NCBI GenBank assembly: GCA_963726455.1
Contig: CAVSCK010000004.1
Span: forward strand, 1,440,001 to 1,504,000
Reading direction: 5' to 3'
Source: an uncultured bacterium
GTDB lineage: Bacteria > Zixibacteria > MSB-5A5 > CAIYYT01
Length of the DNA: 64,000 nucleotides
Each line of letters opens with the position of its first letter. Position 1 is the stretch's first letter. A model generated the notes under the pieces. The model was not told the DNA's origin. It searched no databases and saw only the letters and a list, made by a program, of their open reading frames with translations. This document shows, piece after piece, positions 47,932 through 64,000 of the stretch. The position numbers were made by a program, and so were the translations under genes.

Positions 47932-48907
47932 TGTTTATTATAGGCCGCGACGGTTGCGTGTGAATCAACTGATCCGCGATTTGGCTGCGGAAACGCAGCT
48001 CAAACTTAGCGGCATGATTCAGCCCTATTTCGTCTGCGATGGCAAGAATGTCAAAACCGAAATCTCCAGCATGCCGGGTATCTTCCGTGAGTCGGCCGAT
48101 TCGCTGGTCAAATCCATAGCTGCCGACTTGAAGCTGGGCATCAAACGTGTCATGTTGTTCGGTGTGCCCGATATTAAAGACGCCAACGCTTCTTCGGCAC
48201 TCGGCAAAGATGCCGTTGTCAATCGCGCCGTCAAGATGCTCAAGGATAAATTCGGCGAGCAGATTTTTGTCTCTGCTGACGTTTGCCTGTGCGCCTATAC
48301 CGACTCCGGACATTGCGGCATACTGTCGGGGGAACAGATTGACAACGACAAATCCCTGCCGGTGTTGACCCAGATGGCACTCGATTTGGCGCGCGCCGGC
48401 TGTGACTGTGTGGCTCCTTCCGATATGATGGATGGCCGCGTCGCCGCAATTCGCGACGCGCTCGAAGACGAGGGCTTCGTCAACACATTGATACTCGCTT
48501 ACAGTGCCAAGTATGCTTCGGCCTACTATGGTCCGTTCCGCGAAGCGGCTGAGTCTGCGCCGCAACATGGTGACCGCCAGTCTTACCAGATGGACGTTCG
48601 CAATCGTCTGGAGGCTGTCAAGGAAGTTGCGCTCGACATCGAGGAGGGTGCCGACCTGGTCATGGTCAAGCCCGCGCTTGCTTACTTGGACATCATCTCT
48701 GACGTTCGCGCCGCCACCGAATTGCCGGTTGCCGCCTACAACGTCTCCGGTGAATACAGCATGGTCAAACTGATGGTTCAGGCGGGCTATGCCGAGGAAA
48801 AACGTCTGGTGCTGGAAAACCTGACCGCTATCACGCGCGCCGGCGCCGACATCATTCTCACTTACCATCTGCGCGATATCCTCAAGAACGGATGGTTGAA
48901 TGGCTGA
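47924..48907 (+). CDS. hemB: Porphobilinogen synthase
   Basis: RPRRLR, DVCLCAYT.SGHCG, APSDMMDGRV, YGPFREA, MVKPAL.YLD, YNVSGEYSM. Confidence 0.97.
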   Translation: MHSVYYRPRRLRVNQLIRDLAAETQLKLSGMIQPYFVCDGKNVKTEISSMPGIFRESADSLVKSIAADLKLGIKRVMLFGVPDIKDANASSALGKDAVVNRAVKMLKDKFGEQIFVSADVCLCAYTDSGHCGILSGEQIDNDKSLPVLTQMALDLARAGCDCVAPSDMMDGRVAAIRDALEDEGFVNTLILAYSAKYASAYYGPFREAAESAPQHGDRQSYQMDVRNRLEAVKEVALDIEEGADLVMVKPALAYLDIISDVRAATELPVAAYNVSGEYSMVKLMVQAGYAEEKRLVLENLTAITRAGADIILTYHLRDILKNGWLNG

Positions 48908-50183
48908 TCAATCCAAATCGCACCACACTTTCTCGCGCGCCCGCAAAGTCATTCCCGGTGGCGTAAGCTCACCCGTCCGCGCCTTCCGTGCAGTTGGCGG
49001 CGAGCCGGTCTTCATGGATCATGGCCGGGGGCCGTACTTGTTCGATCTCGATGGCAATCGCTATCTCGATTTCTGCTGTTCCTGGGGACCATTGATACTC
49101 GGCCACGCGCAGTCCGAAGTCGTCGATACCGTCACGACCGCTGTTGCCGCCGGCATGACGTTTGGCACGGCCACCGCAATCGAAGTTGACCTTGCCGAGA
49201 AAATTATTGAGAAAGTCAAACCCATTGAAATGGTGCGCTTCGTCTCCTCCGGCACCGAAGCCGTGATGTCTGCGGTTCGGTTGGCGCGCGGCTTCACGCA
49301 TCGCGACAAGATCATCAAATTCAACGGCTGCTATCATGGCCACTCCGACTACCTGCTTGTTAAGGCCGGCTCTGGGTTGGTCACCTTCGGGACTCCGTCG
49401 TCAGCAGGCGTGCCCGAGGACTTCGTCAAACATACCCTGGTCGCCGAACTCGACGACGAAAAACATGTGATCGCCTATTTCGATCAATACGGAAAAGACA
49501 TCGCCGCAGTAATCATCGAACCGATACCGGCCAATAACGGCCTGCTCCCGCAGCGCCCTGAATTCCTGCAATTCCTGCGCGACATCACCACCAAACATGG
49601 CGCACTCTTGATCTTCGACGAAGTCATCTCCGGTTTCCGCGTTGGCTGGGGAGGCGCCGCCGAGCTTTACGGCATCACTCCCGATCTCATGACCTTCGGT
49701 AAAGTCATTGGCGGTGGCATGCCGGTCGGCGCGTTCGGTGGTCGGCGCGAAATCATGGAGCAACTGGCACCGCTAGGCGCCGTCTATCAGGCGGGCACGC
49801 TTTCCGGAAATCCTGTCGCGATGGCTGCGGGACTCAAGACCCTGTCAATTCTCGAACGCGACGATTCGTATTCACGCCTTGAATCCCTTGGCTCATCGTT
49901 TGAACGCTCGCTAAAAAACTCCCTCGCCAACCTCCCGGTCTCTGTCTTGCGTGTTGGCTCGATAGTCTGGATCGCGCTGCAACCACAACCGCCGCGCCGT
50001 GCCATCGACATTGAAGACAAGGGCATTGCCATCTACAACGCCATGCATCGCGAAATTCTGGAAGCCGGAATCTATCTGCCGCCTTCCGGCTATGAAGTCC
50101 TGTTTGTCAGCACGGCGCACACCGAAGCGATGCTGACCGACGCCGCCGGAATAATCGCGCGCGGCATCAAGGCACGCCTGTAA
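48900..50183 (+). CDS. hemL: Glutamate-1-semialdehyde 2,1-aminomutase
   Basis: PGGVSSPVRAF, SWGPLILGH, SGTEA.MSA.RLARG, GCYHGH, GKVIGGGMP, QAGTLSGNP. Confidence 0.97.
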   Translation: MADQSKSHHTFSRARKVIPGGVSSPVRAFRAVGGEPVFMDHGRGPYLFDLDGNRYLDFCCSWGPLILGHAQSEVVDTVTTAVAAGMTFGTATAIEVDLAEKIIEKVKPIEMVRFVSSGTEAVMSAVRLARGFTHRDKIIKFNGCYHGHSDYLLVKAGSGLVTFGTPSSAGVPEDFVKHTLVAELDDEKHVIAYFDQYGKDIAAVIIEPIPANNGLLPQRPEFLQFLRDITTKHGALLIFDEVISGFRVGWGGAAELYGITPDLMTFGKVIGGGMPVGAFGGRREIMEQLAPLGAVYQAGTLSGNPVAMAAGLKTLSILERDDSYSRLESLGSSFERSLKNSLANLPVSVLRVGSIVWIALQPQPPRRAIDIEDKGIAIYNAMHREILEAGIYLPPSGYEVLFVSTAHTEAMLTDAAGIIARGIKARL

Positions 50184-50205
50184 AGCAACGAGCAGTGAGA
50201 CGAAC

Positions 50206-51564
50206 ATGAAATCACTAGCCAGAAGACTCAGGGCGCCCAAAGGAATGGCGCTGGCATTGTTTGTTGCGATCGCGGTCGTGGCCGTCGCTCAGATAAGCTG
50301 GTGGATACTTTTTCAGGTCACAATCTCCCGCGAACAGGAACATCTCTATCGCCAGGTCGCGCAGACTTCCGCCAATCTCACGACTACCATGCTCAATCAA
50401 TGTTATGACCGCCTGGTCTCGCACGCTACGGTCATTGCATCCGACGACAACCCGCAGCACGTCAAGCGCTCATTCGATCAGCTATTGAATGATCCCGCCG
50501 TCAACGGCTACCTCATCAGCGATTCCTCCGGACAGACGATTGCCCGGGGCGGCGTGCTTGATTCATCACTCTATCTGCCGATTGCAGGCCAAGATCCGGT
50601 CGTTCTCTATCTCAATAGCCGCTATCCGATCGCGCAGATCGCCGGTGTCGCGCCGAATCTGACATTTCAGGATAACGGCAAACGCGGTGTCTACACTTCG
50701 CCCTGGTTTGATTCCAGTATGTTCGTCCTCAAGCCCGAAGTGTTGGCGACCGTCCAGAACAAGGCGTTTCATCGCATTGTCATGTTTGCCGCCGAGGGTT
50801 CCTTCTTCGTCCTCCTGACTTTGCTCGGCGCGTTTATGATCTACCGCACGCTTCGGCAAACCGAGGAACTCAAACAGCAGCAGGAAAATTTCATCCATGC
50901 CGTAACGCATGAATTCAAGATCCCCGTGGCGTCGATCAAGCTCTATTTGGAGACAATGTCCTCGCAGAAAATCGACAAGGACAAGTATCAGACCTTCATC
51001 CCGCGCATGCTCGAAGACTGCCAGCGCCTCGAACGCCTGGTCGACAACGTCCTTGAAGCCGGTCGTCTGAGTCGTCATAGTCACCATCTCAAACTGGCGC
51101 CGGCAAATCTGTCCGCCGACATCGAGGAATATCTCGAAGAGTTGCGGCCGCTTATCGAACGCAGCCACCTGAAACTGTCTGTTAATATCGAATCCGACCT
51201 GAACGTCCGCTCCGACTACCAGGCCATGCGTCGCGTCGTCTCGGCTTTGGTCGACAACGCCATCAAGTACTCGCCGGAAAATCGCCGCGAACTTACCATC
51301 ACTGCGAAACGCGTCGGTCATAAATGCCGCCTGACCTTCGCCGACCGTGGCGTCGGAATCGCTCGCGAAGAACAGGACAACATCTTCAATCGCTTCTATC
51401 GCACGGGCACCGAAAACACCCGCACCGTGAAAGGAACCGGATTGGGATTGTTCCTTGTTAAAGAGATTGTGACCGAGCATGATGGCGCCGTGGAGGTAAA
51501 ATCCGACGGCCTTGATCAGGGCAGCACGTTCGTGATCACTCTTCCATTGGAGAAAAGGTCATGA
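50206..51564 (+). CDS. Membrane sensor histidine kinase
   Basis: Two TMs around a periplasmic domain; THEFKIP H-box, DNAIKYS, DRGVGI, GTGLGL. Confidence 0.93.
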   Translation: MKSLARRLRAPKGMALALFVAIAVVAVAQISWWILFQVTISREQEHLYRQVAQTSANLTTTMLNQCYDRLVSHATVIASDDNPQHVKRSFDQLLNDPAVNGYLISDSSGQTIARGGVLDSSLYLPIAGQDPVVLYLNSRYPIAQIAGVAPNLTFQDNGKRGVYTSPWFDSSMFVLKPEVLATVQNKAFHRIVMFAAEGSFFVLLTLLGAFMIYRTLRQTEELKQQQENFIHAVTHEFKIPVASIKLYLETMSSQKIDKDKYQTFIPRMLEDCQRLERLVDNVLEAGRLSRHSHHLKLAPANLSADIEEYLEELRPLIERSHLKLSVNIESDLNVRSDYQAMRRVVSALVDNAIKYSPENRRELTITAKRVGHKCRLTFADRGVGIAREEQDNIFNRFYRTGTENTRTVKGTGLGLFLVKEIVTEHDGAVEVKSDGLDQGSTFVITLPLEKRS

Positions 51565-52277
51565 GCAAACGCATTCTTGTCGTCGAGGACGAAGAACATA
51601 TCGCCGACGGGCTGGCTATGAATCTCGAAGCCGAGGGCTACGAAGTCGTGGTCTGCGGCGACGGCAACGCTGCGCTCGATTACTACCGGAAAGGTTTTCT
51701 CGACTTGATCATTCTCGACATCATGATTCCCGGCAAGGACGGCCTCGCCGTCTGCCGCGAAATCCGGCAGAGTGGCGGACGCGTTCCGATTCTCTTTCTC
51801 ACGGCGCGTGACCGGCAGTCCGATCGCGTCGAGGGTTTCCTGACCGGCGGCGACGACTACATGACCAAACCGTTCGATTTGCAGGAACTGCTTCTGCGCG
51901 TAGCTGCCATCTTCCGTCGGCAGGTCTGGTACGGCACCGTCGAACGCGAGGAATCGCGCTACGACTGGCACGAGAATTGGATAAATTTCAAAAGCTATCT
52001 CGCGCACGGTCCCGGAGGTGAGGTCGAATTATCTCAGAAGGAATGCATGACCATGAAATTCCTGGTCGAGCATCACGACGAGGTCGTCTCTCGCGACATG
52101 ATTCTCGACGCCGTCTGGGGCTACCATGTCTACCCATCGAGCCGCACGATTGACAACTTCATCGTACGACTGCGCAAAATATTCGAGCCCGATCCTACCG
52201 TGCCGCGATACATCCATACCCTGCGCGGTGTCGGCTACAAATTCACACCCGGCGGAGAGACCGATGCCTCATTATAA
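51561..52277 (+). CDS. OmpR-family response regulator
   Basis: VVEDE, LDIMIP, FLTA, DDYMTKPF, SRTIDNFI.RLRK, TLRGVGYKF. Confidence 0.95.
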   Translation: MSKRILVVEDEEHIADGLAMNLEAEGYEVVVCGDGNAALDYYRKGFLDLIILDIMIPGKDGLAVCREIRQSGGRVPILFLTARDRQSDRVEGFLTGGDDYMTKPFDLQELLLRVAAIFRRQVWYGTVEREESRYDWHENWINFKSYLAHGPGGEVELSQKECMTMKFLVEHHDEVVSRDMILDAVWGYHVYPSSRTIDNFIVRLRKIFEPDPTVPRYIHTLRGVGYKFTPGGETDASL

Positions 52278-53286
52278 TTTCATCGCCGCTGCGCTGCGGC
52301 AACCGCACGAGACCGTGCCCATTTGGGTCATGCGCCAGGCCGGCCGATACTTGCCCGAGTACCGCGCCGTTCGCAGTCGGGCGTCGTTTCTCGATCTGTG
52401 CCATCAGCCCGACTTGATGACCGAAGTCTCCCTGCAACCGATCGACATTTTCGGCTTTGACGCCGCAATCTTCTTTTCCGACATCCTGATTCCTTTGGCG
52501 CCGCTCGGCATTTCGGTCACTTTCCCGAACGGCCCGCCGCGACTCGAACCGCCGTTACGCAGTCCTGCCGACATCGACAAATTGAAACCGTACGATATCA
52601 AGTCCGAGCTTTCGTTTGCACTCGCCGGGATCCGGCAAATTCGCACCAAACTTGATGGACGCGTGCCGTTGATCGGTTTCTGCGGATCACCTTTCACGCT
52701 CCTCTGTTACCTTGTCGAGGGTGGCGGCTCGAAAGATTTCACCGAGACCAAGAAGTTCATCTTCACGTATCCTGATGCTGCCACGCGATTGTTGACCCTT
52801 CTCGCTGATCTGGTCGGCGAATATCTCTCGCATCAGATTGCGGCCGGTGCGCAGGCAGTTCAGGTATTCGACACCTGGGGCGGAATATTGTCGCCGGCTG
52901 ATTACCGCCGCTTCAGTCTGCCCTTTGTGCAACGCGTTTTCGATCGCTGCCACACCAAAGGCGTGCCGCGCATCCTGTATCTGGGCAATACGGCCTGCTA
53001 TCTCAATCTGCTCGCCGATCTCCACTGCGAAGTGATTTCGATTGACTGGCGCACTGACTTGACGGCGGCAAAAGCTGCACTGCCCAACCAGGCAATCCAG
53101 GGCAATCTTGATCCCAACATTCTCTTCGCTCCAACGTCAGTAGTTATTGACGAGGCCCGTCGTATTCTTGAGATTATGCGCGACCGCGACGGCTTTATTT
53201 TCAACCTTGGCCACGGCATCTTACCGCAAACACCGGTTGACAACGTACATGCGCTGGTGGATACGGTTCACTCATTTCGGAGATAA
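52264..53286 (+). CDS. hemE: Uroporphyrinogen decarboxylase
   Basis: PIWVMRQAGRYLPEY, FSDIL, IGFCGSPFTL, QGNLDP, FNLGHGI. Confidence 0.96.
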   Translation: MPHYNFIAAALRQPHETVPIWVMRQAGRYLPEYRAVRSRASFLDLCHQPDLMTEVSLQPIDIFGFDAAIFFSDILIPLAPLGISVTFPNGPPRLEPPLRSPADIDKLKPYDIKSELSFALAGIRQIRTKLDGRVPLIGFCGSPFTLLCYLVEGGGSKDFTETKKFIFTYPDAATRLLTLLADLVGEYLSHQIAAGAQAVQVFDTWGGILSPADYRRFSLPFVQRVFDRCHTKGVPRILYLGNTACYLNLLADLHCEVISIDWRTDLTAAKAALPNQAIQGNLDPNILFAPTSVVIDEARRILEIMRDRDGFIFNLGHGILPQTPVDNVHALVDTVHSFRR

Positions 53287-53288
53287 TC

Positions 53289-54674
53289 ATGAAGGAATTG
53301 AATTCTACTTTCGAACTTCTGAAAAAATACGATAAGCCCGGTCCGCGCTATACTTCCTATCCCACGGCTCCCGAATTTCGGCATGACTTCACCACTGTTG
53401 ATTATACCGATGCTCTCACCCGTGCCGGCAAGAACGTCGATTCACCTCTTTCACTGTATGTTCACATTCCTTTTTGCGCCCAGCGCTGCCACTTCTGCGG
53501 TTGCACGACTGTCATTACGCACAGCGAAGAATCCGTCAACAAATATCTCGCCGCTCTCGATATCGAACTGACAAACATCAGCAAGCATCTCGGATCGCGC
53601 CGGCAATTACTGCAACTCCATTGGGGCGGCGGCACGCCGACTCATTTGAATGTAGCGCAAATCGAGCAACTCTTCCGTCAAATCACCGATCGCTTTTCGA
53701 TTCTTCCCGATGCCGAGGTTGCCATCGAGGTTGACCCGCGCGTTACGTCCGATCAGCAAATCGAAAAACTCCGCGCTCTCGGCTTCAATCGCCTCAGCAT
53801 GGGAATTCAGGACTTCACCAAAGTCGTGCAGGCCGCTATCGGTCGCTGGCAGACTTTGAACCAGAGTGAGGCGCTCTATCGTTCCTGCCGCGCCCTCGGC
53901 TATCGCGGCCTCAATATGGATTTGATCTACGGCCTGCCGAAACAGACAGTCCCTGATTTTGCGCGATCTATTGACCATGTCATCCGCATGCGTCCCGACC
54001 GAGTGGCCGTTTACAGCTATGCCTATTTACCGGCACAGCGCTCCAATCAGAAATTGATCAGCCCGTCCTGGCTGCCGACTCTCGAGGACAAATTCCGGCT
54101 CTTCGCCACGGCCGTCGACAAATTCCTGGACGCCGGCTACATCCAAATCGGCATGGACCATTTTGCCTTGCCTGACGACGAATTGGCGATCGCCCTGTCA
54201 CAGCAGACGTTGCACCGCAATTTCATGGGTTATACCACTAAACCCGCTGCTGACATGATCGGCCTTGGCATGTCCGCCATCGGTGACCTCGCCGCCTGCT
54301 ATGCACAGAATATTTCGCGCATCGGCTCTTATCATGCCGCCATCGAGGAGAAAGGCCTCGCGACCTACCGTGGCTATCACCTTTCGCAGGATGATCTCAT
54401 CCGCCGCCGCCTGATTACATTCCTCATGTGCAATTTCATTCTGCCGTTCGATTTGATTAAGCGCGAATTTGGCGTCGACTACTTCGAGTATTTCCGCGCC
54501 GAGGATGCCCAACTCGACCAGTTCATCACCGACGGTTTGCTGCTGCGGCGTCCCGATGCTCTCGAAATTACTCCCGCAGGGCGCATCTTCATTCGCAATA
54601 TCGCGATGGTCTTCGATGCCTATCTGCATCGCGCGGACAAACCGGGACAGCACACTTTCTCGCGCACGATCTGA
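53289..54674 (+). CDS. hemN: Oxygen-independent coproporphyrinogen III oxidase
   Basis: GPRYTSYPTA, HIPFC..RCHFCGC, HWGGGTP, DLIYGLP.Q, HRNFMGYTT. Confidence 0.96.
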   Translation: MKELNSTFELLKKYDKPGPRYTSYPTAPEFRHDFTTVDYTDALTRAGKNVDSPLSLYVHIPFCAQRCHFCGCTTVITHSEESVNKYLAALDIELTNISKHLGSRRQLLQLHWGGGTPTHLNVAQIEQLFRQITDRFSILPDAEVAIEVDPRVTSDQQIEKLRALGFNRLSMGIQDFTKVVQAAIGRWQTLNQSEALYRSCRALGYRGLNMDLIYGLPKQTVPDFARSIDHVIRMRPDRVAVYSYAYLPAQRSNQKLISPSWLPTLEDKFRLFATAVDKFLDAGYIQIGMDHFALPDDELAIALSQQTLHRNFMGYTTKPAADMIGLGMSAIGDLAACYAQNISRIGSYHAAIEEKGLATYRGYHLSQDDLIRRRLITFLMCNFILPFDLIKREFGVDYFEYFRAEDAQLDQFITDGLLLRRPDALEITPAGRIFIRNIAMVFDAYLHRADKPGQHTFSRTI

Positions 54675-54678
54675 GATA

Positions 54679-55703
54679 ATGGCTACCGCGCTCGAACGAA
54701 TTCAGGCAGTCACCGGGAACAGACCGCAGTTCGATCCGGCGCGGGAAATCTGGGGTGTGCTGTTCGTCAATATGGGTGGCCCCGAAAAAACGGAAGAGAT
54801 CAGACCCTATCTTTACAACATCTTCTCCGACCGCGCGGTTATTAACTTCCCGTTGGCGCCTCTCTTGCAGAAGCCAATGGCTCGTCTGATCTCGACACTT
54901 TCGCGCAAAAAGAGTCGCTGCACGTTACAATCTGATTGGCGGCGGTTCACCCCTGTTGAGTTATGATCGCAAGCTGGCTGACGGCGTTAAGCAAATCCTG
55001 ATACGCGAATTCTGCAACATCCGAGTCTATGTCGGCATGCGCTATATCGCAGCCCTTCATCGAAAGCCAGCTACAAGCAGCAATTTCCGATGGTTGCATG
55101 CACCTGCTGGTATTTCCCATGTATCCGCAATACTGTCTGGCAACCACCGGCACCGCTTTCGACGCCATCACTCGCTACCTTGCCGATCATTCGAGAGCAT
55201 TGTCGCTCGATGCAATACCTGACTATTATGAATCTGCCGGATACATTGCATTACTGCGCAAACGTATTGAGCAGGCATTCGCTAGGACACAAGCTGGCTC
55301 GAAAACACGTCTATTGTTCTCTGCTCATTCAGTCCCTGAAAGTATCCGCGCGGGCGGTGATCCTTACGTCAACCAGGTAACTCACACTTGCGATCTCGCC
55401 GGACGCGGTTATGATTATATGCTTTCCTTTCAATCAGCGACCGGCCCGGTGAAATGGGTCGGACCCGACACCTTGCAAACAATCGACAAGCTCGCCATCG
55501 AGGGTATCGAGCAACTCATAGTCGTACCGGTCAGCTTTGTGTCGGACAACATTGAGACGCTTTACGACATCGATATTGTCATGCAGGAACGTTGCCGTCA
55601 ACTTGGAATGAAACCGCTGATCCGCACCACCATGTTCAATGGCGAACCCGACTTCGCCGAATTCATCGCCGGCCTTGTCCGCGAGAGGATACGCACCACA
55701 TGA
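54679..55703 (+). CDS. hemH: Ferrochelatase (two +1 frameshifts)
   Basis: NMGGP (frame 1), YNLIGGGSPL..GMRY (frame 2), PMYPQY, FSAHSVP, FQS..GP..W.GP, SFVSDNIETLYDID (frame 3); extra bases ~54901 and ~55046. Confidence 0.9.
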
Positions 55704-57097
55704 CTGTCGATCACGAGACTCCGCGTATTGCGATCATCGGTGGCGGCATTTCCGGTTTGGCGTCGCTGCACTTTCTCAAACGCAAGCTTGGTGGACGCGC
55801 ACGGATTCGCCTGTTCGAGGCAGACTCACGGCTGGGCGGTACCATCGGCTCCGACCGCGTTGATGGTTATGTCTGTGACTGGGGGCCTAACGGCTTTCTC
55901 GATCGTGTCCCCTTGACTTTGCAGCTTGTCGATGAAATCGGCCTGCGGGACAAACTTCGTCCCGCTGATCCCCAGGCCGATAATCGTTTCATTTACCGGC
56001 ATGGCCGTCTGCATGCCATCAGCGCTTCCCCGATCAAGTTCATGACATCGCGGTTGCTGTCATTGCCAGGACGGTTGCGTGTGACGATGGAACCTTTGAT
56101 CAAAGCCAGACGCGACGGCGCCGACGAATCCGTGTTTGATTTTGCCGCGCGGCGTATCGGTCGCGAAGCCGCCGAGGCCATGATCGATCCCATGGTCTCC
56201 GGCATCTTCGGTGGTGATGCCAAAGCCGTTTCGCTCAAATCCTGTTTCCCTGTAATGGAGGAAATGGAACGCAATTACGGCTCCCTCTTCAAAGCGATGA
56301 TCGCCAAAAAGAAGTCAGGCAAGAACGCCGGACCTGCCGGACCTTCGGGACGGCTGACCTCGTTCAACAACGGTCTCTTTACGCTTGTCGAGCGCTTCTA
56401 CGAACTATACTCTGAACACATTCAGACCGGCACTCCGACCACAAATATCACTCGAACGCCCACCGGATATCATCTCGAATTTGGCAACGGCAGTTCCGAC
56501 ACCTTTGACGGCGTGATTATCGCAACCCCGGCCTATGTTGCCGCACATTTGTTGAAACGCTCTGATGAATCGGTCTCCGATCTGCTCAGCCAAATTCCCT
56601 ATGCGTCACTTGCCGTCTGTTGCTTCGGTTATCGCGACGACAAACGCGCGCAGGAACTCGATGGCTTCGGATTTCTTGTTCCCCGTAACGAGGGCAAACG
56701 AATTCTCGGCTCGATCTGGACATCGTCGATCTTCCGCGATCAGGCGCCAACCGGAGAAGTTCTGCTGCGCACAATGGTCGGCGGCTACACCGACCCCGAT
56801 GCCGTGCATCTTGACGACAAGGATCTGATCGCATTAGTTCACGGCGAGCTTAGCCAGATACTCGGCCTGCAAACGCAACCTGCCTTTGTGCGAATCTTTC
56901 GCTATGACAAGGGTATCCCCCAATTCATTCTGGGCCACAATGACCGGCTCCGGCAAATCGCGACACGCCTCGAATCTCTCCCCGGAATCTATCTTGCCAG
57001 CAATGCCTATTCCGGCATCGGCCTGAACGATTGCGTCACCCGCGCCGATGAAGTCACCACCGCTCTCGTTCAGCATCTCGCCTGCCCGAAGACCTAA
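55700..57097 (+). CDS. hemY: Protoporphyrinogen/coproporphyrinogen oxidase, FAD-dependent (HemY type)
   Basis: IIGGGISGL, GPNGF, GFGFLVP, IPQF..GH, GIGLNDCV; ATGA overlap with hemH. Confidence 0.93.
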   Translation: MTVDHETPRIAIIGGGISGLASLHFLKRKLGGRARIRLFEADSRLGGTIGSDRVDGYVCDWGPNGFLDRVPLTLQLVDEIGLRDKLRPADPQADNRFIYRHGRLHAISASPIKFMTSRLLSLPGRLRVTMEPLIKARRDGADESVFDFAARRIGREAAEAMIDPMVSGIFGGDAKAVSLKSCFPVMEEMERNYGSLFKAMIAKKKSGKNAGPAGPSGRLTSFNNGLFTLVERFYELYSEHIQTGTPTTNITRTPTGYHLEFGNGSSDTFDGVIIATPAYVAAHLLKRSDESVSDLLSQIPYASLAVCCFGYRDDKRAQELDGFGFLVPRNEGKRILGSIWTSSIFRDQAPTGEVLLRTMVGGYTDPDAVHLDDKDLIALVHGELSQILGLQTQPAFVRIFRYDKGIPQFILGHNDRLRQIATRLESLPGIYLASNAYSGIGLNDCVTRADEVTTALVQHLACPKT

Positions 57098-57178: not shown

Positions 57179-58003
57179 GTGCATAACAGGGTACTCCTCT
57201 ATTCTGCAGCGGCAGTGGCATTCGTGGCACTGCTCTTTCTTGGCGCCGGCCTGGGCAACAGCATTGCCTTCACCAACTTAAATCATCCCCACCGCTCTGT
57301 CGGCTGCAAGAATTGCCACGGGTTTCAAACGCGAGAGGCCGCCTCGGATTCGCTTCAAGGTCAGAAACCGGCCGCGACCGCCCAATGCCTTGAATGCCAT
57401 GCCACCGACCTGCAAAAACCCGGTTTCGCGCAGCTTTTCCACCAGCGTGGCGAGGATTGTGAACGCTGCCACAGCTTCCACAATCCGCAAGTGCTTGTGA
57501 TAAATGGAGACTCCACCGACATCGAGGTAGCCACAGCCGAGCTCTACCAATGTAGTGACTGCCACCAGACTACCACTCTCCCCGAAGTTAGTGCGGGACA
57601 TCAGGAAGCGGCGAAACTTCTGCACGGTGACACCAGGGGATTATTCCGCACCGATCCCAGCGCCTTCTGCCTGGCCTGCCACGATTACGGTGCCGTTCCG
57701 CAGGTTACGTCGAATTTAAGGCCTCCCCAGTTGCACATGGAGGCCAGTCATCCTTACGACATCAGGATCATCCCCGGCTATCGGCGCGCTGGGTCCTCCC
57801 TGAAACTGCAGGATCAGCTTGACCCAATGTACCGGCTGGTCGACGAGAAAATGACCTGTATCACCTGCCATTCCCTGGCCTCAACTAATGCCCAACTTGT
57901 GGTGGCCACAATCGACAAAGGCCTCTGCACCGGTTGCCATGATATGCAGCGTCCCGATGGCTCCTTCGCCGCCCTGTCTCTTCACAAGCAGGTCAATAAC
58001 TAG
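57179..58003 (+). CDS. Multiheme cytochrome c (7 CxxCH)
   Basis: N-terminal signal/anchor; CKNCH, CLECH, CERCH, CSDCH, CLACH, CITCH, CTGCH. Confidence 0.88.
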   Translation: MHNRVLLYSAAAVAFVALLFLGAGLGNSIAFTNLNHPHRSVGCKNCHGFQTREAASDSLQGQKPAATAQCLECHATDLQKPGFAQLFHQRGEDCERCHSFHNPQVLVINGDSTDIEVATAELYQCSDCHQTTTLPEVSAGHQEAAKLLHGDTRGLFRTDPSAFCLACHDYGAVPQVTSNLRPPQLHMEASHPYDIRIIPGYRRAGSSLKLQDQLDPMYRLVDEKMTCITCHSLASTNAQLVVATIDKGLCTGCHDMQRPDGSFAALSLHKQVNN

Positions 58004-58363
58004 TTTCCTAAGCGACCACCACCAACCCAAACTTTCCTGCCATCTGCTAACCTTAGTGAATTGAGGCACAAATCTCTCGGGACCCATGTCCGCCGGCGAC
58101 ATCATCAGGTCGGACTTCGGTTTCCCGTAAAGCACTGTGGAAAGGCCACTAAACCTGTTCGTTTTCCAGCCAATTGGACTCAAAAAAGATTCGGAAAGAT
58201 TTAATTTTCCCTTGCCTTTTTGGTATTTCACCTATATCTTGCGGCGTGCTAGGAGATACCGGTTTTTACTTTGAACGGCACATCGAGTCGCATAAACACT
58301 GGGAATTACTTCACGTTAGTGAATATTAGCTAACTTCGGACTCGAAGAAATTGAAATGTTAAT

Positions 58364-58381
58364 TTGTGAAAAAAATCACAT
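58364..58381. promoter_or_regulatory. Rex/CRP-like palindrome
   Basis: TTGTGAA-AAAA-ATCACAT. Confidence 0.6.
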
Positions 58382-58459
58382 GAATACCGGCGAAATCCAA
58401 GCTTTCTCCCTTGGTTATTTCCATTTTGCCTTGGCCGACGGATTTTTTTCCACCTCAAT

Positions 58460-58477
58460 ATGTGAAAAGCTTCACAT
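58460..58477. promoter_or_regulatory. Rex/CRP-like palindrome
   Basis: ATGTGAA-AAGC-TTCACAT (perfect 7-bp arms), just upstream of the NHL gene. Confidence 0.7.
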
Positions 58478-58501
58478 GGAAACCCGCCGGTAATCACCCA
58501 A

Positions 58502-59629
58502 ATGATGAATCAACTGCGCAGTCCGCACGAAAGACAACTCCTACGCTTCGGCTCTTCCTGTTTCACGAAGCTGCTCGTCCTATCTCTCCTAGTTCTCGCC
58601 GCTCTCTCTGCGACTACTCCGCTCTTCGCTCAGGGCAACGGCCGTTTAGTGCTGCCGGCACAGTTCGTTCGCGAACTTACTCCTCCCGGTGACGGTGGCA
58701 GCTTCCTTCGTCCCGACAAGATTTTCCTCGATAACCGTTTCAACGAAGTCTTTGTGTCCGACCCGGGATACAATCGGATCGTTGTCTTTGATACCTCCGG
58801 CCTGTACAAATTCGAATTTTCCGGCAACCAGATTTTCGGCACCGCTGATGACATTGTGGTAGACTCCGACGGCTACATTTATGTTCTGGGTTCGACCGCC
58901 GCGGGCAAGAACATCTTTGTTTTCGATTACGACGGCCTCTACCTCAAGAAGCTGGAGTTGACCGGCCTGCCCGCCGGGCAAACATTGGAAATCGATCATC
59001 TCATAATCGATGAAACCAGCACCTTCTACACGATCGACGAAGCCAAAGCGCTGGTGACTTCATTGGGCACCGACGGCGTCCTGAAAAATCAATTCCCGAT
59101 CCTGGCTGATCTCACTGACAAACTGCGGCAGGAAGCCCTCTACGGCACGCCGCAGGTTTACGGCGGCGCCATCTACATCCCGGTTTCTACCGAGGGCTCG
59201 GTGTACGTCTACGATCTCTCCGGCAACTATATTTCCAACATCGGCGTTCAGGGCACTGACGCCGGTTCGCTTAACTTCCCCGTTGCCGTCGCTGTTGCCG
59301 ACGGTGGACAAATACTCACCGTACTGGATAAACATCGCTATGTCGTCGTTTGCTACACGCTGGACGGCAAGTTCATCGGCGAGTACGGCGGCATGGGATT
59401 TAGTCTGGGCTGGTTCTACCATCCGGGCGCTTTCGCCCTCGACAAGTTCAATCGTGCCTACATCAGCCAGGTGTATCTGAATCGTGTGCAAGTCTGTGCG
59501 CTGCCCGATGCCATCATTCAGAAAGCAAAGTCACTGAACATAAAGAGTTCTCAAACACAAACTTCACCACAAAAGCTTGAAACAATGCTTAGAGAGGAGG
59601 TGATCGGGCAAATCACCGAAATCCATTGA
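58502..59629 (+). CDS. Secreted NHL-repeat beta-propeller (candidate OmcS-companion protein)
   Basis: VFVSDPGYNRIVVFD, DIVVDSDGYIYV, GSLNFPVAVAV, GWFYHP...NRVQV. Confidence 0.88.
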   Translation: MMNQLRSPHERQLLRFGSSCFTKLLVLSLLVLAALSATTPLFAQGNGRLVLPAQFVRELTPPGDGGSFLRPDKIFLDNRFNEVFVSDPGYNRIVVFDTSGLYKFEFSGNQIFGTADDIVVDSDGYIYVLGSTAAGKNIFVFDYDGLYLKKLELTGLPAGQTLEIDHLIIDETSTFYTIDEAKALVTSLGTDGVLKNQFPILADLTDKLRQEALYGTPQVYGGAIYIPVSTEGSVYVYDLSGNYISNIGVQGTDAGSLNFPVAVAVADGGQILTVLDKHRYVVVCYTLDGKFIGEYGGMGFSLGWFYHPGAFALDKFNRAYISQVYLNRVQVCALPDAIIQKAKSLNIKSSQTQTSPQKLETMLREEVIGQITEIH

Positions 59630-59673
59630 TGATGTTAACTCTAATACCTTGTGAGTGTTTTTGGAGGTTTTCT

Positions 59674-60741
59674 ATGCGTAAGGTTCTTCTCATTGCCATC
59701 TGCTTCGCCGTAGCGCTGTTTTTCAGCGGCGTAGCCTATGGTTTCCATGACGAAGGCGTGGCGCGCTGCAGTGGTTGTCATACCATGCACAACAGCCAGA
59801 ATGGCACTGCGGTAGACACCACAACCGGCCATGAAAACGGTAACGAATACCTGTTGATCAAGGCCAAGCCGTCTGACGTCTGCTTGTCATGCCACGGTGC
59901 CGAACGCGGCGCCGTATTTGGCACCGATCCGTTGGCTCCCCCGGCCGAAAAGGGCCCGGGTAACTTTGTTTTCCTTCTGGAGAACAACATTTATGATGGC
60001 CGCACTGGCACCGTCACCGGCGACGCCGCCGGTCACAACGTCGATGCCCCGTCCAGAGGCGTCGGTCCGGACGCTACCCTGAGCTCCGCCCCGGGTGGAA
60101 CTTTCCCGGCCAGTGCTATGGGTTGCTCCTCCTGCCATGATCCGCATGGCAACCAGAACTATCGTCTTCTGTATGGCGCCGGTGGCGTTGTGCAGGATGG
60201 TATCGCCACGTTCACCAGTGCTGCTCCGACCGCCGAAGGTCTTGGTTTCAGCGCCGCTGCTGAAAGCAACACCAACCACGTCGCCTACAAGGGTGGCTTC
60301 AGCGCTTGGTGCGGAAACTGCCACGGCAATTTCCATCAGGAAGCAGGCGGCAGACTTGAGCATCCGTCCGGCGAAGGCTTGGGCGGCACGATTTCCGGTA
60401 ACTATGGTCGTTACAATGGTACTGCCCATTACAACAGTGGTACTCCGGCGACCTCGTATCTGGCAGCGGTCCCGTTTGAGGATGCAGCCAATACCACCAC
60501 CTCGACTGCCGGCCCGACGGCCTCCAGCCAGGTGTCTTGCATCACCTGCCACAGAGCACATGCCACCTCAGCTCCGGATGCCGGCCGCTGGGACTTCAAT
60601 GTGACCTGGCTCTCTGACGACGGTGTTCGCTCCGGTTCCTATGCTATTCCAAATCCGTACGGTCCCGACGTGGAAATTCAGCGCTCGCTGTGCAACAAGT
60701 GCCACGTGAAGGATGCCGGCGACGTTGGAAGCAATCCGTAA
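59674..60741 (+). CDS. omcS: Hexaheme cytochrome c, OmcS-family (nanowire-type)
   Basis: RBS GGAGG; signal peptide then FHDEGVARCSGCHTMHNS, CLSCH, APGGTFPA..CSSCHDPHG, VAY.GG.S.WCGNCH, CITCHRAHA, QRSLCNKCH.KD; collinear with Geobacter OmcS motifs as recalled. Confidence 0.85.
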   Translation: MRKVLLIAICFAVALFFSGVAYGFHDEGVARCSGCHTMHNSQNGTAVDTTTGHENGNEYLLIKAKPSDVCLSCHGAERGAVFGTDPLAPPAEKGPGNFVFLLENNIYDGRTGTVTGDAAGHNVDAPSRGVGPDATLSSAPGGTFPASAMGCSSCHDPHGNQNYRLLYGAGGVVQDGIATFTSAAPTAEGLGFSAAAESNTNHVAYKGGFSAWCGNCHGNFHQEAGGRLEHPSGEGLGGTISGNYGRYNGTAHYNSGTPATSYLAAVPFEDAANTTTSTAGPTASSQVSCITCHRAHATSAPDAGRWDFNVTWLSDDGVRSGSYAIPNPYGPDVEIQRSLCNKCHVKDAGDVGSNP

Positions 60742-60801
60742 TCGGATCTTGTGATACAAGCTGTTGAGTTGATACCCCTTATCAGCAACTACAGTGAAAA
60801 G

Positions 60802-60834
60802 CAAAACGCCCGACTGACAAAGCCGGGCGTTTTG
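60802..60834 (+). terminator. Strong hairpin/terminator after the omcS-like gene
   Basis: CAAAACGCCCG-11 nt-CGGGCGTTTTG. Confidence 0.75.
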
Positions 60835-60854
60835 ATTAAATTAATCAGTAAGAA

Positions 60855-62963
60855 ATGAGACAATATTTGTCGCCATACAGACCGATAGCCATATTTGTCC
60901 GCCTTGTCGTCTGCCTGATTGCCCTGTTCCTCGCAGGAATCAGTTCTGCCGTGGCAGGAATTTCGCCCAACCTTTCCGGCACGATCAATGTGTCAGGCGT
61001 AAATTCGCTGTCCGACACACTGCACGAACAGAGTCTCAGCCAGCAGTACGCTATCTACTGGCAAAAGAATCTCTTCCCCTATGTGATGTTGCGCACCTCG
61101 GTTACTTACTTCAATTATGGCCTGAACCAAAACATCGGCGCGAATAGTTGGCGCAAAGAGTTTTCTCCGGTAGCGGAGCTGACGTGGAAGCATCCGTACT
61201 TTAGTCTATCCGGTTCGGCGCAACGCCGCCAGACCAGCAGTAACGACATGCTCACCAACCTGAACAACGATTTTCTGACTGCGAGTCTGCGCACGCGATT
61301 GGCAAATTATCCTTACATCAATGCCCAGTTTCAGCAAAGCGATATCTACAACCGCCCCGATCGCCGTGAGCGCGACACGCGGAACCGTTCGCTGATAGCC
61401 GCGACCGGCTACAGTACGCGAAGCTCGAATGCTTCTTATTCGTTTTCGCTTCGCAACACAATCAACCGCCTGGATCAACGACAACAGAAAGATTATCAGC
61501 ATTCGGTACGGCTGAATCATACCCGCAATCTGGTCGGGAAAGCAGTAAGAACAAGCGTTGGATATTCGCTGGATTATCGCACCCAGCATGATATCACTCC
61601 GGCTGCCAGCATTCTTCCTCGCGAGATCCCCGGGTTGAACGGCCTGTATGCCAACGATGCAACGCCCGACTTGGGCGCGCTTGATAGCATTACATCTTTG
61701 GCAGATGGAAATACTGCCTTACCAACGACGCCTCCGATCGATATCGGCAACGGCAACGTCAACTGGAACCTGGGCGCTGACCTCGGCGCCACGCAGACAG
61801 TCAATAAGATCTATGTCTACACCGACCGTCCCTCCGGCAATGGAGTGCGCTGGGAAGTCTTCAGGTCGGCCGACAATATCGTCTGGAATCAGGTGACGGG
61901 ATCAACGTCATTCTTCAATATCAGTTTCAGCCGCTACGAAATCAGTTTTCCCAGCGACACTACTCGCCTTATCAAGGCCGTAAATTCCGGCCTCAATGAA
62001 GTTCCGACGGTTTTTGTGACTGAACTCGAAGCGCTGGTCGAAATCGGGAACCAGCCCGATATCAAACGGGAGCAAACCATTCATCAGGCAAATTTGAATA
62101 ATACTTTTCTCTTGTCATCCAAACTTACGGCCGGTGCCGATGTCTACTTGCGCCGTGAATCGGGCAGAAGTTTGTCCGTGTTACGAAATGAGACCGATTA
62201 CGCCGCCAGCACGAGATTCAAGTTTTCCGAGGCATTACAGAACGGTGTTCGCTACGAAATCGACCTGATCAACTTTGAAAAAGGCACCCCCGATGTCGAT
62301 AAGACGTCTTCGGTGGCCTATGATCTGCAGTACAGACCAATGGAGACTCTCGCTTTTCTCTTGTCCGCAGCCAGCCGTCACAGCTATATTGGTCCGATGA
62401 AGTCCCAGGAACTCAATAATGCCATTCTGCGGGCGCTTGGCGACCCCTTCGTTCGCTTGCACATCGCGACTGAGGTTGGATACTCAGGCAACAATCTCTA
62501 CGCGGGGAATCTCAGATATAACACCTTCGTCTATAACATGTCAGTCACCGGCGGAATCTTCAGGTTCCTGGACGCCGGCGTGACTTATGGCTATCAGCAT
62601 ACTGACGACGTCAGAAACGCCTTGATACGGACCAAGAACCAATATTCCCTGCTCGTGACCTATCGGATGACGCGCCATATTCTGATGCAGGGAAACGTTG
62701 ATCTGACCCATGACTTCAACAATCGCTACATTTCCCAGGAATACCTGGTAAGCTGGACGGCCTCTCCCAAGCTCAGTCTTTCCGGTTCCGCCTATTTGAC
62801 CGAGCAGTACGGCGCTTCGCGAACCGATAGATACAATGCCCAGCTTCAATATTATGTCACCGCGCGCACGTCGCTGTTGGTGATGTATACCGAGTATGAT
62901 CTGACTCCCACTCTCGGCAATCGCACTGCCGCCATACAGGCCGGTATCAGGACTTCTTTTTGA
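60855..62963 (+). CDS. Outer-membrane beta-barrel protein with an inserted discoidin-like domain
   Basis: Signal peptide, alternating amphipathic Tyr/Ser/Asn-rich strands, terminal Phe (GIRTSF); central LGADLG..VNKIYVY..WEVFRSADN..W segment. Confidence 0.8.
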   Translation: MRQYLSPYRPIAIFVRLVVCLIALFLAGISSAVAGISPNLSGTINVSGVNSLSDTLHEQSLSQQYAIYWQKNLFPYVMLRTSVTYFNYGLNQNIGANSWRKEFSPVAELTWKHPYFSLSGSAQRRQTSSNDMLTNLNNDFLTASLRTRLANYPYINAQFQQSDIYNRPDRRERDTRNRSLIAATGYSTRSSNASYSFSLRNTINRLDQRQQKDYQHSVRLNHTRNLVGKAVRTSVGYSLDYRTQHDITPAASILPREIPGLNGLYANDATPDLGALDSITSLADGNTALPTTPPIDIGNGNVNWNLGADLGATQTVNKIYVYTDRPSGNGVRWEVFRSADNIVWNQVTGSTSFFNISFSRYEISFPSDTTRLIKAVNSGLNEVPTVFVTELEALVEIGNQPDIKREQTIHQANLNNTFLLSSKLTAGADVYLRRESGRSLSVLRNETDYAASTRFKFSEALQNGVRYEIDLINFEKGTPDVDKTSSVAYDLQYRPMETLAFLLSAASRHSYIGPMKSQELNNAILRALGDPFVRLHIATEVGYSGNNLYAGNLRYNTFVYNMSVTGGIFRFLDAGVTYGYQHTDDVRNALIRTKNQYSLLVTYRMTRHILMQGNVDLTHDFNNRYISQEYLVSWTASPKLSLSGSAYLTEQYGASRTDRYNAQLQYYVTARTSLLVMYTEYDLTPTLGNRTAAIQAGIRTSF

Positions 62964-62986
62964 TTCCGAGTGAAAGGTTTTACATA

Positions 62987-63562
62987 ATGCGTTTTACAGC
63001 CCTGCGGTCAATTTCAATACTAACTCTGCTGTTACTCCTGGTCGCCTGTTCTGGAATGGGGCCGACGGTCTTCGTCAACAAGCAGTACAATTTTAACTTC
63101 CTCGAAAAAGTTGCCGTGGTACCGTTCGAGAACCTCTCCTCCGATCAGGGCGCCGGGGCACGCATCACCCACATTTTCCTCACGGAGCTTTTGTCCACCG
63201 AGTCATTCGATGTGGTCGAGCCGGGGGAAGTGTCCAAAGCCGTCCAGAAATTTGGCGGCGGCGGAACGGCCAGTCTGACCAAAGATCAGATCGTGGAGGT
63301 CGGCAAGACTCTGGGAGTGCAGGGGATTATCCTTGGCTCCGTGAACGAATCGGCCGGCACGCGCGCCGGATCCTCACCTACTACCGAAATTACCATCAAC
63401 GCCAGAATGGTGGAGACCGAAACCGGCCAGACTATTTGGTCGGCTACGAATACTGAGGGCGGACGCGGCTTCTGGGCATCGCTCTTTGGCACCGGCGACA
63501 AGTCGGAAAGCCAATCCACCCGCAAGTGCGTCAAGCGGATCATTAAGACACTGGTCAAGTAG
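62987..63562 (+). CDS. CsgG/DUF799-like lipoprotein
   Basis: Lipobox LVAC; VAVVPFENLS, LGVQGIILGSV, ARMVETETGQTIWS. Confidence 0.82.
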   Translation: MRFTALRSISILTLLLLLVACSGMGPTVFVNKQYNFNFLEKVAVVPFENLSSDQGAGARITHIFLTELLSTESFDVVEPGEVSKAVQKFGGGGTASLTKDQIVEVGKTLGVQGIILGSVNESAGTRAGSSPTTEITINARMVETETGQTIWSATNTEGGRGFWASLFGTGDKSESQSTRKCVKRIIKTLVK

Positions 63563-63569
63563 CCACGCG

Positions 63570-64000
63570 ATGACTGCCTCCATAGTTCGCCGGATATTTC
63601 TCGTTGCCGCGTTGCCGGTTATTTCGATGATCCTCGGGGTATTCTCTTTGCCATCTGATCTCAGCGCCGCTGCGCGCATAGGAATCCTGCCGTTCGGCAA
63701 TTACACCAATACCAACTCAGCACCCGATTCGCTGACACCCCTGATCCAGGAGCAATTGACTTCGCGCGGGTTTGTGGCGGTATCGCACGACAGCATCCGC
63801 AATTTCATGCGCCACCAGCGCCTCAGAACGATGGGTATGGTTTCCTCCAAAGAGACCGAATTGCTGCGCGACAACCTCAGTTTGGATTACTTGATCACGG
63901 GCTCGCTGGACTTCTACGCGGCACAGGCCAATCCCGAAGTAGGACTTTCCGTTCGGGTAATTGATTGTCACTCGCTGGCAATCGTGTGGGCGGCGAGTCA
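63570..64000 (+). CDS. Second CsgG-like secreted protein (3' truncated; absent from ORF track)
   Basis: Manual translation MTASIVRRIFLVAALP...RIGILPFGNYT...LDYLITGSLDFY...VGLSVRVIDCHSLAIVWAAS. Confidence 0.8.
   Translation, partial: MTASIVRRIFLVAALPVISMILGVFSLPSDLSAAARIGILPFGNYTNTNSAPDSLTPLIQEQLTSRGFVAVSHDSIRNFMRHQRLRTMGMVSSKETELLRDNLSLDYLITGSLDFYAAQANPEVGLSVRVIDCHSLAIVWAAS

Follow-up and report, generated by a model that had tools for sequence, protein, structure and literature searches.

The 64,000-bp stretch considered here (the window; positions 1,440,001 to 1,504,000 of contig CAVSCK010000004.1, assembly GCA_963726455.1, or G000:C4:1440001-1504000 in our numbering) ends within a gene cluster which is probably an operon of the osc (omcS-companion) type, ~12.4 kb long and present in the window with its front part; the genome is of Zixibacteria type. 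This reading, taken together with the mechanism of export and filament formation proposed below, was given a probability of about 0.8. The original prediction had recognised six co-oriented genes at this place, and all six open reading frames (ORFs A to F) were indeed present in the ORF list, on the plus strand and exactly where it had put them, from 57179 to the window end (Table 1). Its descriptions of A as a 7-heme cytochrome, B as an NHL beta-propeller, C as an OmcS-like hexaheme, D as a large beta-barrel with a terminal Phe and F as a CsgG-like protein continuing past the window agreed with the motifs, profiles and models presented below; for B, this agreement was limited to the superfamily level.

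The cluster ran for ~5.6 kb beyond the window end (into stretch L003, whose positions equal window positions minus 56000) and comprised 10 genes in total, the window holding its first 6.8 kb. The genes followed the order 7-heme cytochrome (A), propeller (B), OmcS-family hexaheme (C), large barrel (D), lipoprotein (E), two-domain protein of CsgG/LpoB fold (F), SurA-like prolyl isomerase, 26-heme cytochrome and 16-heme cytochrome. From B through the last cytochrome they mostly overlapped or almost touched, the sole gap being the 114 bp between C and D. Past the window, the gene after F encoded a SurA-like protein of 556 amino acids (aa) carrying two PPIC rotamase domains; next came a multiheme cytochrome distributed over two overlapping frames (17 + 9 = 26 CXXCH motifs) and a 409-aa cytochrome with 16 CXXCH motifs.

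A cluster of this kind, osc, is reportedly known from Geobacter sulfurreducens (GSU2505-GSU2493), where Shen et al. (2025, Cell Chem Biol 32:239) are said to have described it under a title calling the system widespread and ancient. Compared through a Geobacteraceae metagenome-assembled genome (MAG), both clusters shared a co-directional propeller, an OmcS-family hexaheme, a large barrel, a small lipoprotein, a two-domain protein of lipoprotein fold, a SurA-like isomerase, and a 26-heme and a second large cytochrome. The present lineage is set apart by the absence of the propeller lipoprotein OscD (GSU2500 in Geobacter), by an added 7-heme cytochrome at the front of the cluster, by a hexaheme falling into a clade of its own and by a frameshifted 26-heme gene; in addition, it displayed a single hexaheme gene, in contrast to the three of Geobacter (omcS, omcT and GSU2501). 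Since the osc system was already published, the cluster extends a known system and the gain is incremental. The clusters of OmcE nanowires in Desulfuromonadia follow the same logic around a tetraheme subunit from a different family (PMC13712944; this and the other papers designated by PMC numbers are cited from excerpts).

Conservation within and outside Zixibacteria

The phylum sample consisted of 151 genomes, in which a match was considered OmcS-like at E<=1e-10 and close at E<1e-100. OmcS-like matches were encountered in 49 genomes and close ones in 26, including the genome considered here. Precisely these 26 genomes also possessed the barrel; in each of the 25 carriers besides the present one, its gene stood on the strand of the hexaheme gene and at most 3 kb downstream of it. 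A lack of homology to osc genes and of co-occurrence with omcS homologues was the ground on which the original prediction had proposed to be refuted, and a strict co-occurrence is what the sample displayed. All 14 phylum loci that were fetched showed the same gene order, five of them harboring an OscD-like gene between subunit and barrel. Named relatives of C and E were mostly MAGs labelled 'candidate division Zixibacteria', and the sole genome of the same genus possessed neither the barrel nor a close OmcS-like gene. In the remaining 23 genomes with a match, the hexaheme was always a distant one (~30 % identity) and the D query retrieved no barrel; these distant hexahemes may form a separate family with a different export module or none.

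Loci from other phyla were gathered from the named genome collection, the query being a degenerate pattern of the OmcS N-terminus. The resulting 23 loci came from Geobacteraceae, Desulfuromonadaceae, other Desulfuromonadales, Nitrospirota, and Anaeromyxobacter and relatives, two of them being overlapping stretches of one contig. G. sulfurreducens PCA was not among them, and the Geobacteraceae and Desulfuromonadaceae MAG loci served as its stand-ins. Escherichia coli was the sole match when the heme-motif family was searched in 14 control genomes.

The ten cluster proteins were compared by phmmer with all ORFs of the 23 loci. Homologues of the lipoprotein were detected in 15 loci (E 1e-22 to 1e-33, and 2e-11 where the gene was cut by the locus end), the eight others ending, as contig or as locus, before that position. 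The propeller and the two-domain protein were each represented in 13 loci (the latter with E 1e-12 to 1e-22) and the isomerase in 12. The large cytochrome was found in six (E 1e-75 to 1e-117 in five and 1.4e-10 in one cut by the locus end), which were all the OmcS loci extending that far. In the recurring order, a propeller gene preceded between one and three OmcS-like genes; these were separated by 3.5-4 kb from the genes of the lipoprotein, the two-domain protein, the isomerase and the large cytochrome.

The OmcS of locus L006 (Geobacteraceae) matched 6ef8 with E 3e-160, and this locus was therefore used as the Geobacteraceae reference. Downstream of its OmcS gene came, in this order, genes for a cytochrome of 314 aa, a second OmcS-like protein, a propeller lipoprotein of 467 aa, a barrel of 767 aa, a lipoprotein of 198 aa, a protein of 451 aa and an isomerase. 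When 15 proteins from L006 and from locus L007 were searched back against the whole genome, 11 found their best match within the cluster; a twelfth, the second OmcS-like protein of L006, retrieved an unlinked paralogue first and the cluster second. The genome contained no homologue of the L006 barrel, of the 314-aa cytochrome or of the two OscD-like proteins, apart from a marginal match of one of the latter on another contig (E 0.0015). In the forward direction, the best matches of the lipoprotein and of the isomerase fell in the OmcS locus in five out of five genomes and those of the two-domain protein in four, the top match in the fifth genome being a paralogous lipoprotein. E and the isomerase were thus reciprocal best hits in all five genomes and F in four of them. 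This comparison of reciprocal hits and synteny, which the original prediction had suggested, revealed the same order beside bona fide OmcS genes in Geobacteraceae, Desulfuromonadaceae, Nitrospirota and Anaeromyxobacter.

In Geobacter, oscC is the OmcS-like GSU2501, oscI is GSU2495 and oscJ is GSU2494; filament morphology was tied to OscD, folding to OscH, and secretion to OscE, OscF and OscG (PMC13194489). The block of eight genes downstream of GSU2501, GSU2500-GSU2493, was tied to nanowire maturation and secretion, and GSU2495 was described as a ~70 kDa protein with 26 hemes (PMC12977616), a number matching the 26 CXXCH motifs of the orthologues in OscI position.

Table 1. Position of the cluster genes and of associated features (window coordinates)
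Feature	Position	Strand	Basis
A, 7-heme c-type cytochrome with N-terminal signal or anchor segment	57179..58003	+	274 aa, 7 CXXCH
B, secreted six-bladed (NHL-type) beta-propeller	58502..59629	+	375 aa; DUF5128 and ScyF NHL matches
C, OmcS-family hexaheme cytochrome, presumed filament subunit	59626..60741	+	371 aa, 6 CXXCH
Hairpin between C and D, possible attenuator	60802..60834	+	inverted repeat, RNA fold
D, large outer-membrane beta-barrel, OscE position	60855..62963	+	702 aa; AlphaFold2 model
E, PelC-like outer-membrane lipoprotein, OscF position	62960..63562	+	200 aa; lipobox, fold search
F, two-domain CsgG/LpoB-fold secreted protein, OscG position	63486..64000, on to window+694	+	402 aa (full ORF L003 7486-8694); Pfam CsgG
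Histidine kinase (50206-51564) and OmpR-type response regulator (51561-52277), possible cluster regulators	50206..52277	+	Pfam HisKA/HATPase_c and Response_reg/Trans_reg_C

Hexaheme subunit, barrel and lipoproteins

Among all PDB chains, C matched OmcS (6ef8_A) with E 1e-36 and 130 bits (phmmer). The alignment was almost full length, extending from mature residue 1 of OmcS (FH..G.A.C.GCHTMHN) to the C-terminal heme motif CNKCH, with an identity of ~40 % or less. The closest homologues were 353-aa proteins covering 96 % of the ORF, and the true start is likely the ATG at 59674 (MRKVLL...). In all 42 aligned family members, the six CXXCH motifs were accompanied by exactly six further invariant histidines (H41, H55, H137, H174, H246 and H312), which is the number required for six bis-His hemes. 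H55 aligned with the OmcS histidine located three residues after the first heme motif (...CHTMH...), which we take to be His16, the ligand to a heme of the neighbouring subunit. OmcS subunits are linked through a His-heme bond across their interface (PMC12307469). C, known here from its sequence, consequently shared with the OmcS structures (6ef8 and 6nef) the six heme motifs and six distal histidines, the mature N-terminus including the bridging histidine, and the C-terminal motif.

A hairpin was located in the gap following the subunit gene. Its RNA fold reached -20.5 kcal/mol (z -5.2), and none of 200 shuffles was as stable. The underlying inverted repeat came from a terminator scan, which placed the terminator on the minus strand; no clean T-run was present 3' of the hairpin on the plus strand. 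The hairpin would possibly act as an attenuator.

A second, unlinked hexaheme of the OmcS family was encoded on the minus strand at G000:C4:548709-549728 (L004 9700-10779). It was 59 % identical to C, kept all heme ligands and fell into the same Zixibacteria clade; a second copy was also present in several related genomes. Its neighbours (a response regulator, a DUF2807 protein, a methyltransferase and a DinB-like protein) were unrelated to the cluster, and the possibility of a second copy of the machine at this place was rejected on that account.

D displayed no match to any Pfam or NCBIfam family and ended with ...RTSF. Its AlphaFold2 model, built on 62 sequences, was a large beta-barrel (pLDDT 91.5) with 11 long strands, a beta-rich insert at about residues 254-397 and 17 further long strands (~28 according to DSSP). 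At E<=1e-3, the family amounted to 389 representative clusters. When the ORFs of the OmcS loci were searched iteratively, 18 ORFs were retrieved (one contig being counted twice, and the split barrel gene of L024 contributing two pieces), every one of which was the big ORF just 5' of the lipoprotein gene. The insert matched F5_F8_type_C_2 in 25 of the 62 members (best 1.3e-9) and F5_F8_type_C in 15, the D of the window itself reaching only E 0.038 with the former profile; these matches point to a discoidin-like domain. Being placed after strand 11, the insert would face outward, provided that the N-terminus is periplasmic as usual for such barrels. Prediction of a complex between D (residues 36-702) and E (residues 30-200), both supplied as alignments, gave 0.00 in two runs and was granted no weight either way.

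Lipoprotein E displayed the lipobox LVAC, with a cysteine (Cys30) invariant in all 58 aligned sequences, and likely starts at 62987 (MRFTALR...). Pfam LpoB matched above its cut-off (26.3 bits) and CsgG remained just below (20.1 bits for a cut-off of 20.8). The best Foldseek matches of the E model (pLDDT 88.7) were PelC (5t0z, 5t10 and 5t11) and PelBC (9h80), with E 9e-10 to 4e-8 and TM-scores on the target of 0.67-0.76 (0.71-0.76 for PelC). GNA1162, FlgT and LpoB came next, and CsgG (4uv2) ranked 28th with a TM-score of 0.43 and a root mean square deviation of 9.4. According to this model, E is a small lipidated protein of PelC fold, and its 200 aa would be too short for the membrane-spanning hairpins of the CsgG type. 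The original prediction had called this lipoprotein CsgG-like, which holds at the level of fold and clan; a CsgG pore was rejected, as the fold search put PelC nearest and CsgG far away.

F likely starts at 63567 (MTASIV...). Its C-terminal domain (residues 226-359) matched Pfam CsgG (PF03783) above the cut-off (5.5e-08, 32.8 bits), and also FlgO and LpoB; inspection of the signal peptide revealed no lipobox cysteine. The likeness to CsgG is one of clan-level fold, and neither csgE- nor csgF-like genes were noticed in the cluster. Since a separate large barrel is present, a self-made pore of CsgG type is unnecessary, and the models favour as the more likely pore the large barrel, underlain by PelC-like lipoproteins.

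The PelC/PelB gate offers a close comparison. E has the fold of PelC and is likewise encoded beside an outer-membrane barrel gene, which suggests a ring-under-barrel arrangement. The gate is accordingly read as a large barrel over PelC-like domains, one provided by E and two by F, the models covering D and E. Identities to the Pel proteins were, however, limited to 14-18 %, the present barrel is much larger and devoid of the tetratricopeptide repeat region, and the cargo of PelC/PelB is a polysaccharide whereas here it would be a heme protein.

Proposed mechanism and alternative explanations

In the mechanism considered here, the hexaheme would be exported by Sec, loaded with heme by a Ccm system encoded elsewhere in the genome and handled in the periplasm by the isomerase/chaperone. 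It would then cross the outer membrane via the large barrel, under which the PelC-like lipoprotein domains would form a periplasmic collar, as PelC does under PelB. Outside the cell, subunits would polymerise head to tail, H55, the distal histidine near the N-terminus, completing heme coordination in the next subunit. The 26-heme, 16-heme and 7-heme cytochromes would carry electrons over the periplasm to the filament base. All these steps are drawn from homology and from proposals made for Geobacter.

Several points weigh against this reading. OmcS alone is known to form a wire (PMC12977616), and even in Geobacter the secretion mechanism, including the role of OscEFG, was termed 'still speculative' (PMC12307469). 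Mature C counts 332 residues and OmcS 407, a difference of ~75 which includes several loop deletions; the interface loops of C may therefore differ. In a quick tree of 38 sequences (the careful maximum-likelihood search was incomplete), the Zixibacteria hexahemes grouped together with support 100, and neither the OmcS clade nor that of GSU2501 position included them; because of this separate clade, C is considered a member of the OmcS family by sequence but no orthologue of OmcS (GSU2504). A single-sequence search with D retrieved the barrel in only two of five OmcS-bearing genomes, both times at the syntenic spot, and missed the one Geobacteraceae barrel. The equivalence of D, E, F, the isomerase and the two large cytochromes with OscE, OscF, OscG, OscH, OscI and OscJ would be one of position, the letters coming from the order in the Geobacteraceae MAG and from the papers. 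No OscD-like gene was found anywhere in the genome with the OscD-position queries from L006 and L007. The 26-heme gene, lastly, was interrupted by one frameshift at L003 11696-11710 (equivalent to window positions 67696-67710), which leaves a 17-heme and a 9-heme ORF.

The same uncertainty about polymerisation outside OmcS and about the secretion mechanism (PMC12977616 and PMC12307469) leaves room for a porin-cytochrome conduit devoid of any secretion. The barrel would then permanently sheathe one of the big multiheme cytochromes as MtrB does MtrA, electrons would reach a surface-bound, non-filamentous hexaheme, and lipoproteins and isomerase would only assist assembly. Three multiheme cytochromes are encoded in the operon, and the best TM-score of the barrel model in the PDB was indeed obtained with MtrB of the Mtr complex (6r2q_B, 0.40/0.43). 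This match was generic, however: TM-scores did not exceed 0.43, identity was 9 %, and ushers and TonB-dependent receptors, which came next, scored alike. The conduit has further to accommodate a bridging histidine near the N-terminus which is, like all other heme ligands, invariant in the 42 family members, the strict linkage between barrel and hexaheme genes in 25 out of 25 genomes, and the Geobacter genetics which tie OscEFG to OmcS secretion (PMC13194489). It was judged decidedly unlikely.

Likewise, the proximity of E to PelC and to the PelBC transporter, and the source annotations of some E relatives as 'polysaccharide biosynthesis protein PelC', might announce a Pel-like exopolysaccharide export module lying merely beside cytochrome genes. 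Pfam revealed no glycosyltransferase or other pel-type gene among the 10 genes of the cluster, and the barrel showed no family match to PelB, its ~28 long strands contrasting with the 16 strands of the PelB barrel. As linkage to the hexaheme was also strict, both in the 25 genomes and across four phyla, a Pel-type exporter was rejected as very improbable, for want of synthesis genes and given this tie to the cytochrome gene. A different matter is whether the same hardware runs in reverse, with Fe(II), minerals or partner cells as the electron source, instead of serving the reduction of Fe(III) or Mn(IV). In principle, a heme chain can conduct both ways, and the content of the cluster gives no indication of the direction of electron flow; the characterised homologue, OmcS, was nevertheless studied as an outward electron path, and uptake was considered unlikely.

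An osc-type export and filament system hence remains the preferred reading. The original prediction had inferred a dedicated machine for secretion and assembly of a cytochrome filament; homology, gene order and co-occurrence argue for an osc-type cluster, but the machine is not a new one, the osc system being published as widespread. The literature found for Zixibacteria in connection with OmcS, nanowires or extracellular electron transfer was restricted to gene surveys of the FeGenie type, without a description of this cluster. The cytochrome-nanowire assembly system would thereby be extended to a candidate phylum without cultured members, at an incidence of ~1 in 6 genomes (26 of 151). Its compact version of 10 genes without OscD could help to define a minimal parts list, and the PelC-like fold and discoidin-like insert are structural leads on how a folded heme protein might cross the outer membrane, a step that reviewers still call speculative.

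More tentatively, and at somewhat below even odds, Zixibacteria, an uncultured phylum of the FCB group using type IX secretion, may build hexaheme filaments of their own with a trimmed osc machine lacking OscD and supplemented by a 7-heme feeder. The gate would be PelBC-like, with a ~28-strand barrel bearing a surface discoidin (lectin-like) domain and with a collar of PelC fold. If this is true, the block of barrel, lipoprotein and isomerase would be an ancient, cargo-general exporter of folded heme proteins, older than OmcS; the idea of such an exporter preceding OmcS was already raised for GSU2501 (PMC12977616).

Front of the cluster and surrounding genes

Cytochrome A matched Pfam Cytochrome_C7 (1.7e-13) and Paired_CXXCH_1 (8e-10). 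Homologues were located directly 5' of the propeller gene in 10 of the 14 Zixibacteria-type loci, and none (E<=1e-3) was present in any of the 23 loci from Desulfuromonadales, Nitrospirota or Myxococcota (phmmer against all ORFs). B matched Pfam DUF5128 ('6-bladed beta-propeller', 4.7e-14) and the NCBIfam ScyF NHL model (1.4e-14), with a score far below the cut-off of the latter; it is a six-bladed propeller of NHL type as far as such profiles tell, at the superfamily level only. B homologues stood just 5' of the OmcS-like gene in all 14 phylum loci and in the 13 loci of other phyla that encoded one.

The histidine kinase and response regulator had homologues directly 5' of the 7-heme cytochrome gene in five of 14 loci from the same phylum. 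In the window, hemE, hemN, hemH and hemY separated them from the cluster, and synteny makes them possible cluster members. The region directly 5' of the cluster (48900-57097) encoded, besides this pair, a hemL-type aminotransferase, a uroporphyrinogen decarboxylase, a HemN-type radical SAM oxidase, a ferrochelatase and a flavoprotein resembling protoporphyrinogen oxidase, the last four being those which stood between the pair and the 7-heme gene.

The frame of the ferrochelatase gene (hemH, 54469-55703) was broken. Positions 3-55 of the Pfam profile were found in ORF 54469-54966 and positions 95-316 in ORF 55029-55703, in a different frame; the middle part is probably contained in a third frame (ORF 54956-55222). 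Given the many heme proteins of this genome, a pseudogene seems less likely here than assembly indels. The split of the 26-heme gene may likewise be due to an assembly indel, and the orthologue in OscI position was a single ORF with 26 CXXCH motifs in 13 of the 14 related loci.

The original prediction had also recommended inspecting the DNA downstream. Further osc-type genes (isomerase, 26-heme and 16-heme cytochromes) were found there, as expected; genes for cytochrome c maturation, in contrast, were located on another contig. Two cytochrome c assembly genes (PF01578) were present at G000:C3:320646-322658, in frames of 575 and 232 aa, and from these sizes may be of CcmF and CcmC type. Genes for heme attachment are thus present in the genome, unlinked to the cluster.

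Directly after the cluster (L003 13988-17591), a protein with a HamA domain (6.5e-61) was followed by a DEAD/ResIII helicase. Both are unrelated to the cluster and presumably resemble a defence pair of the Hachiman type.

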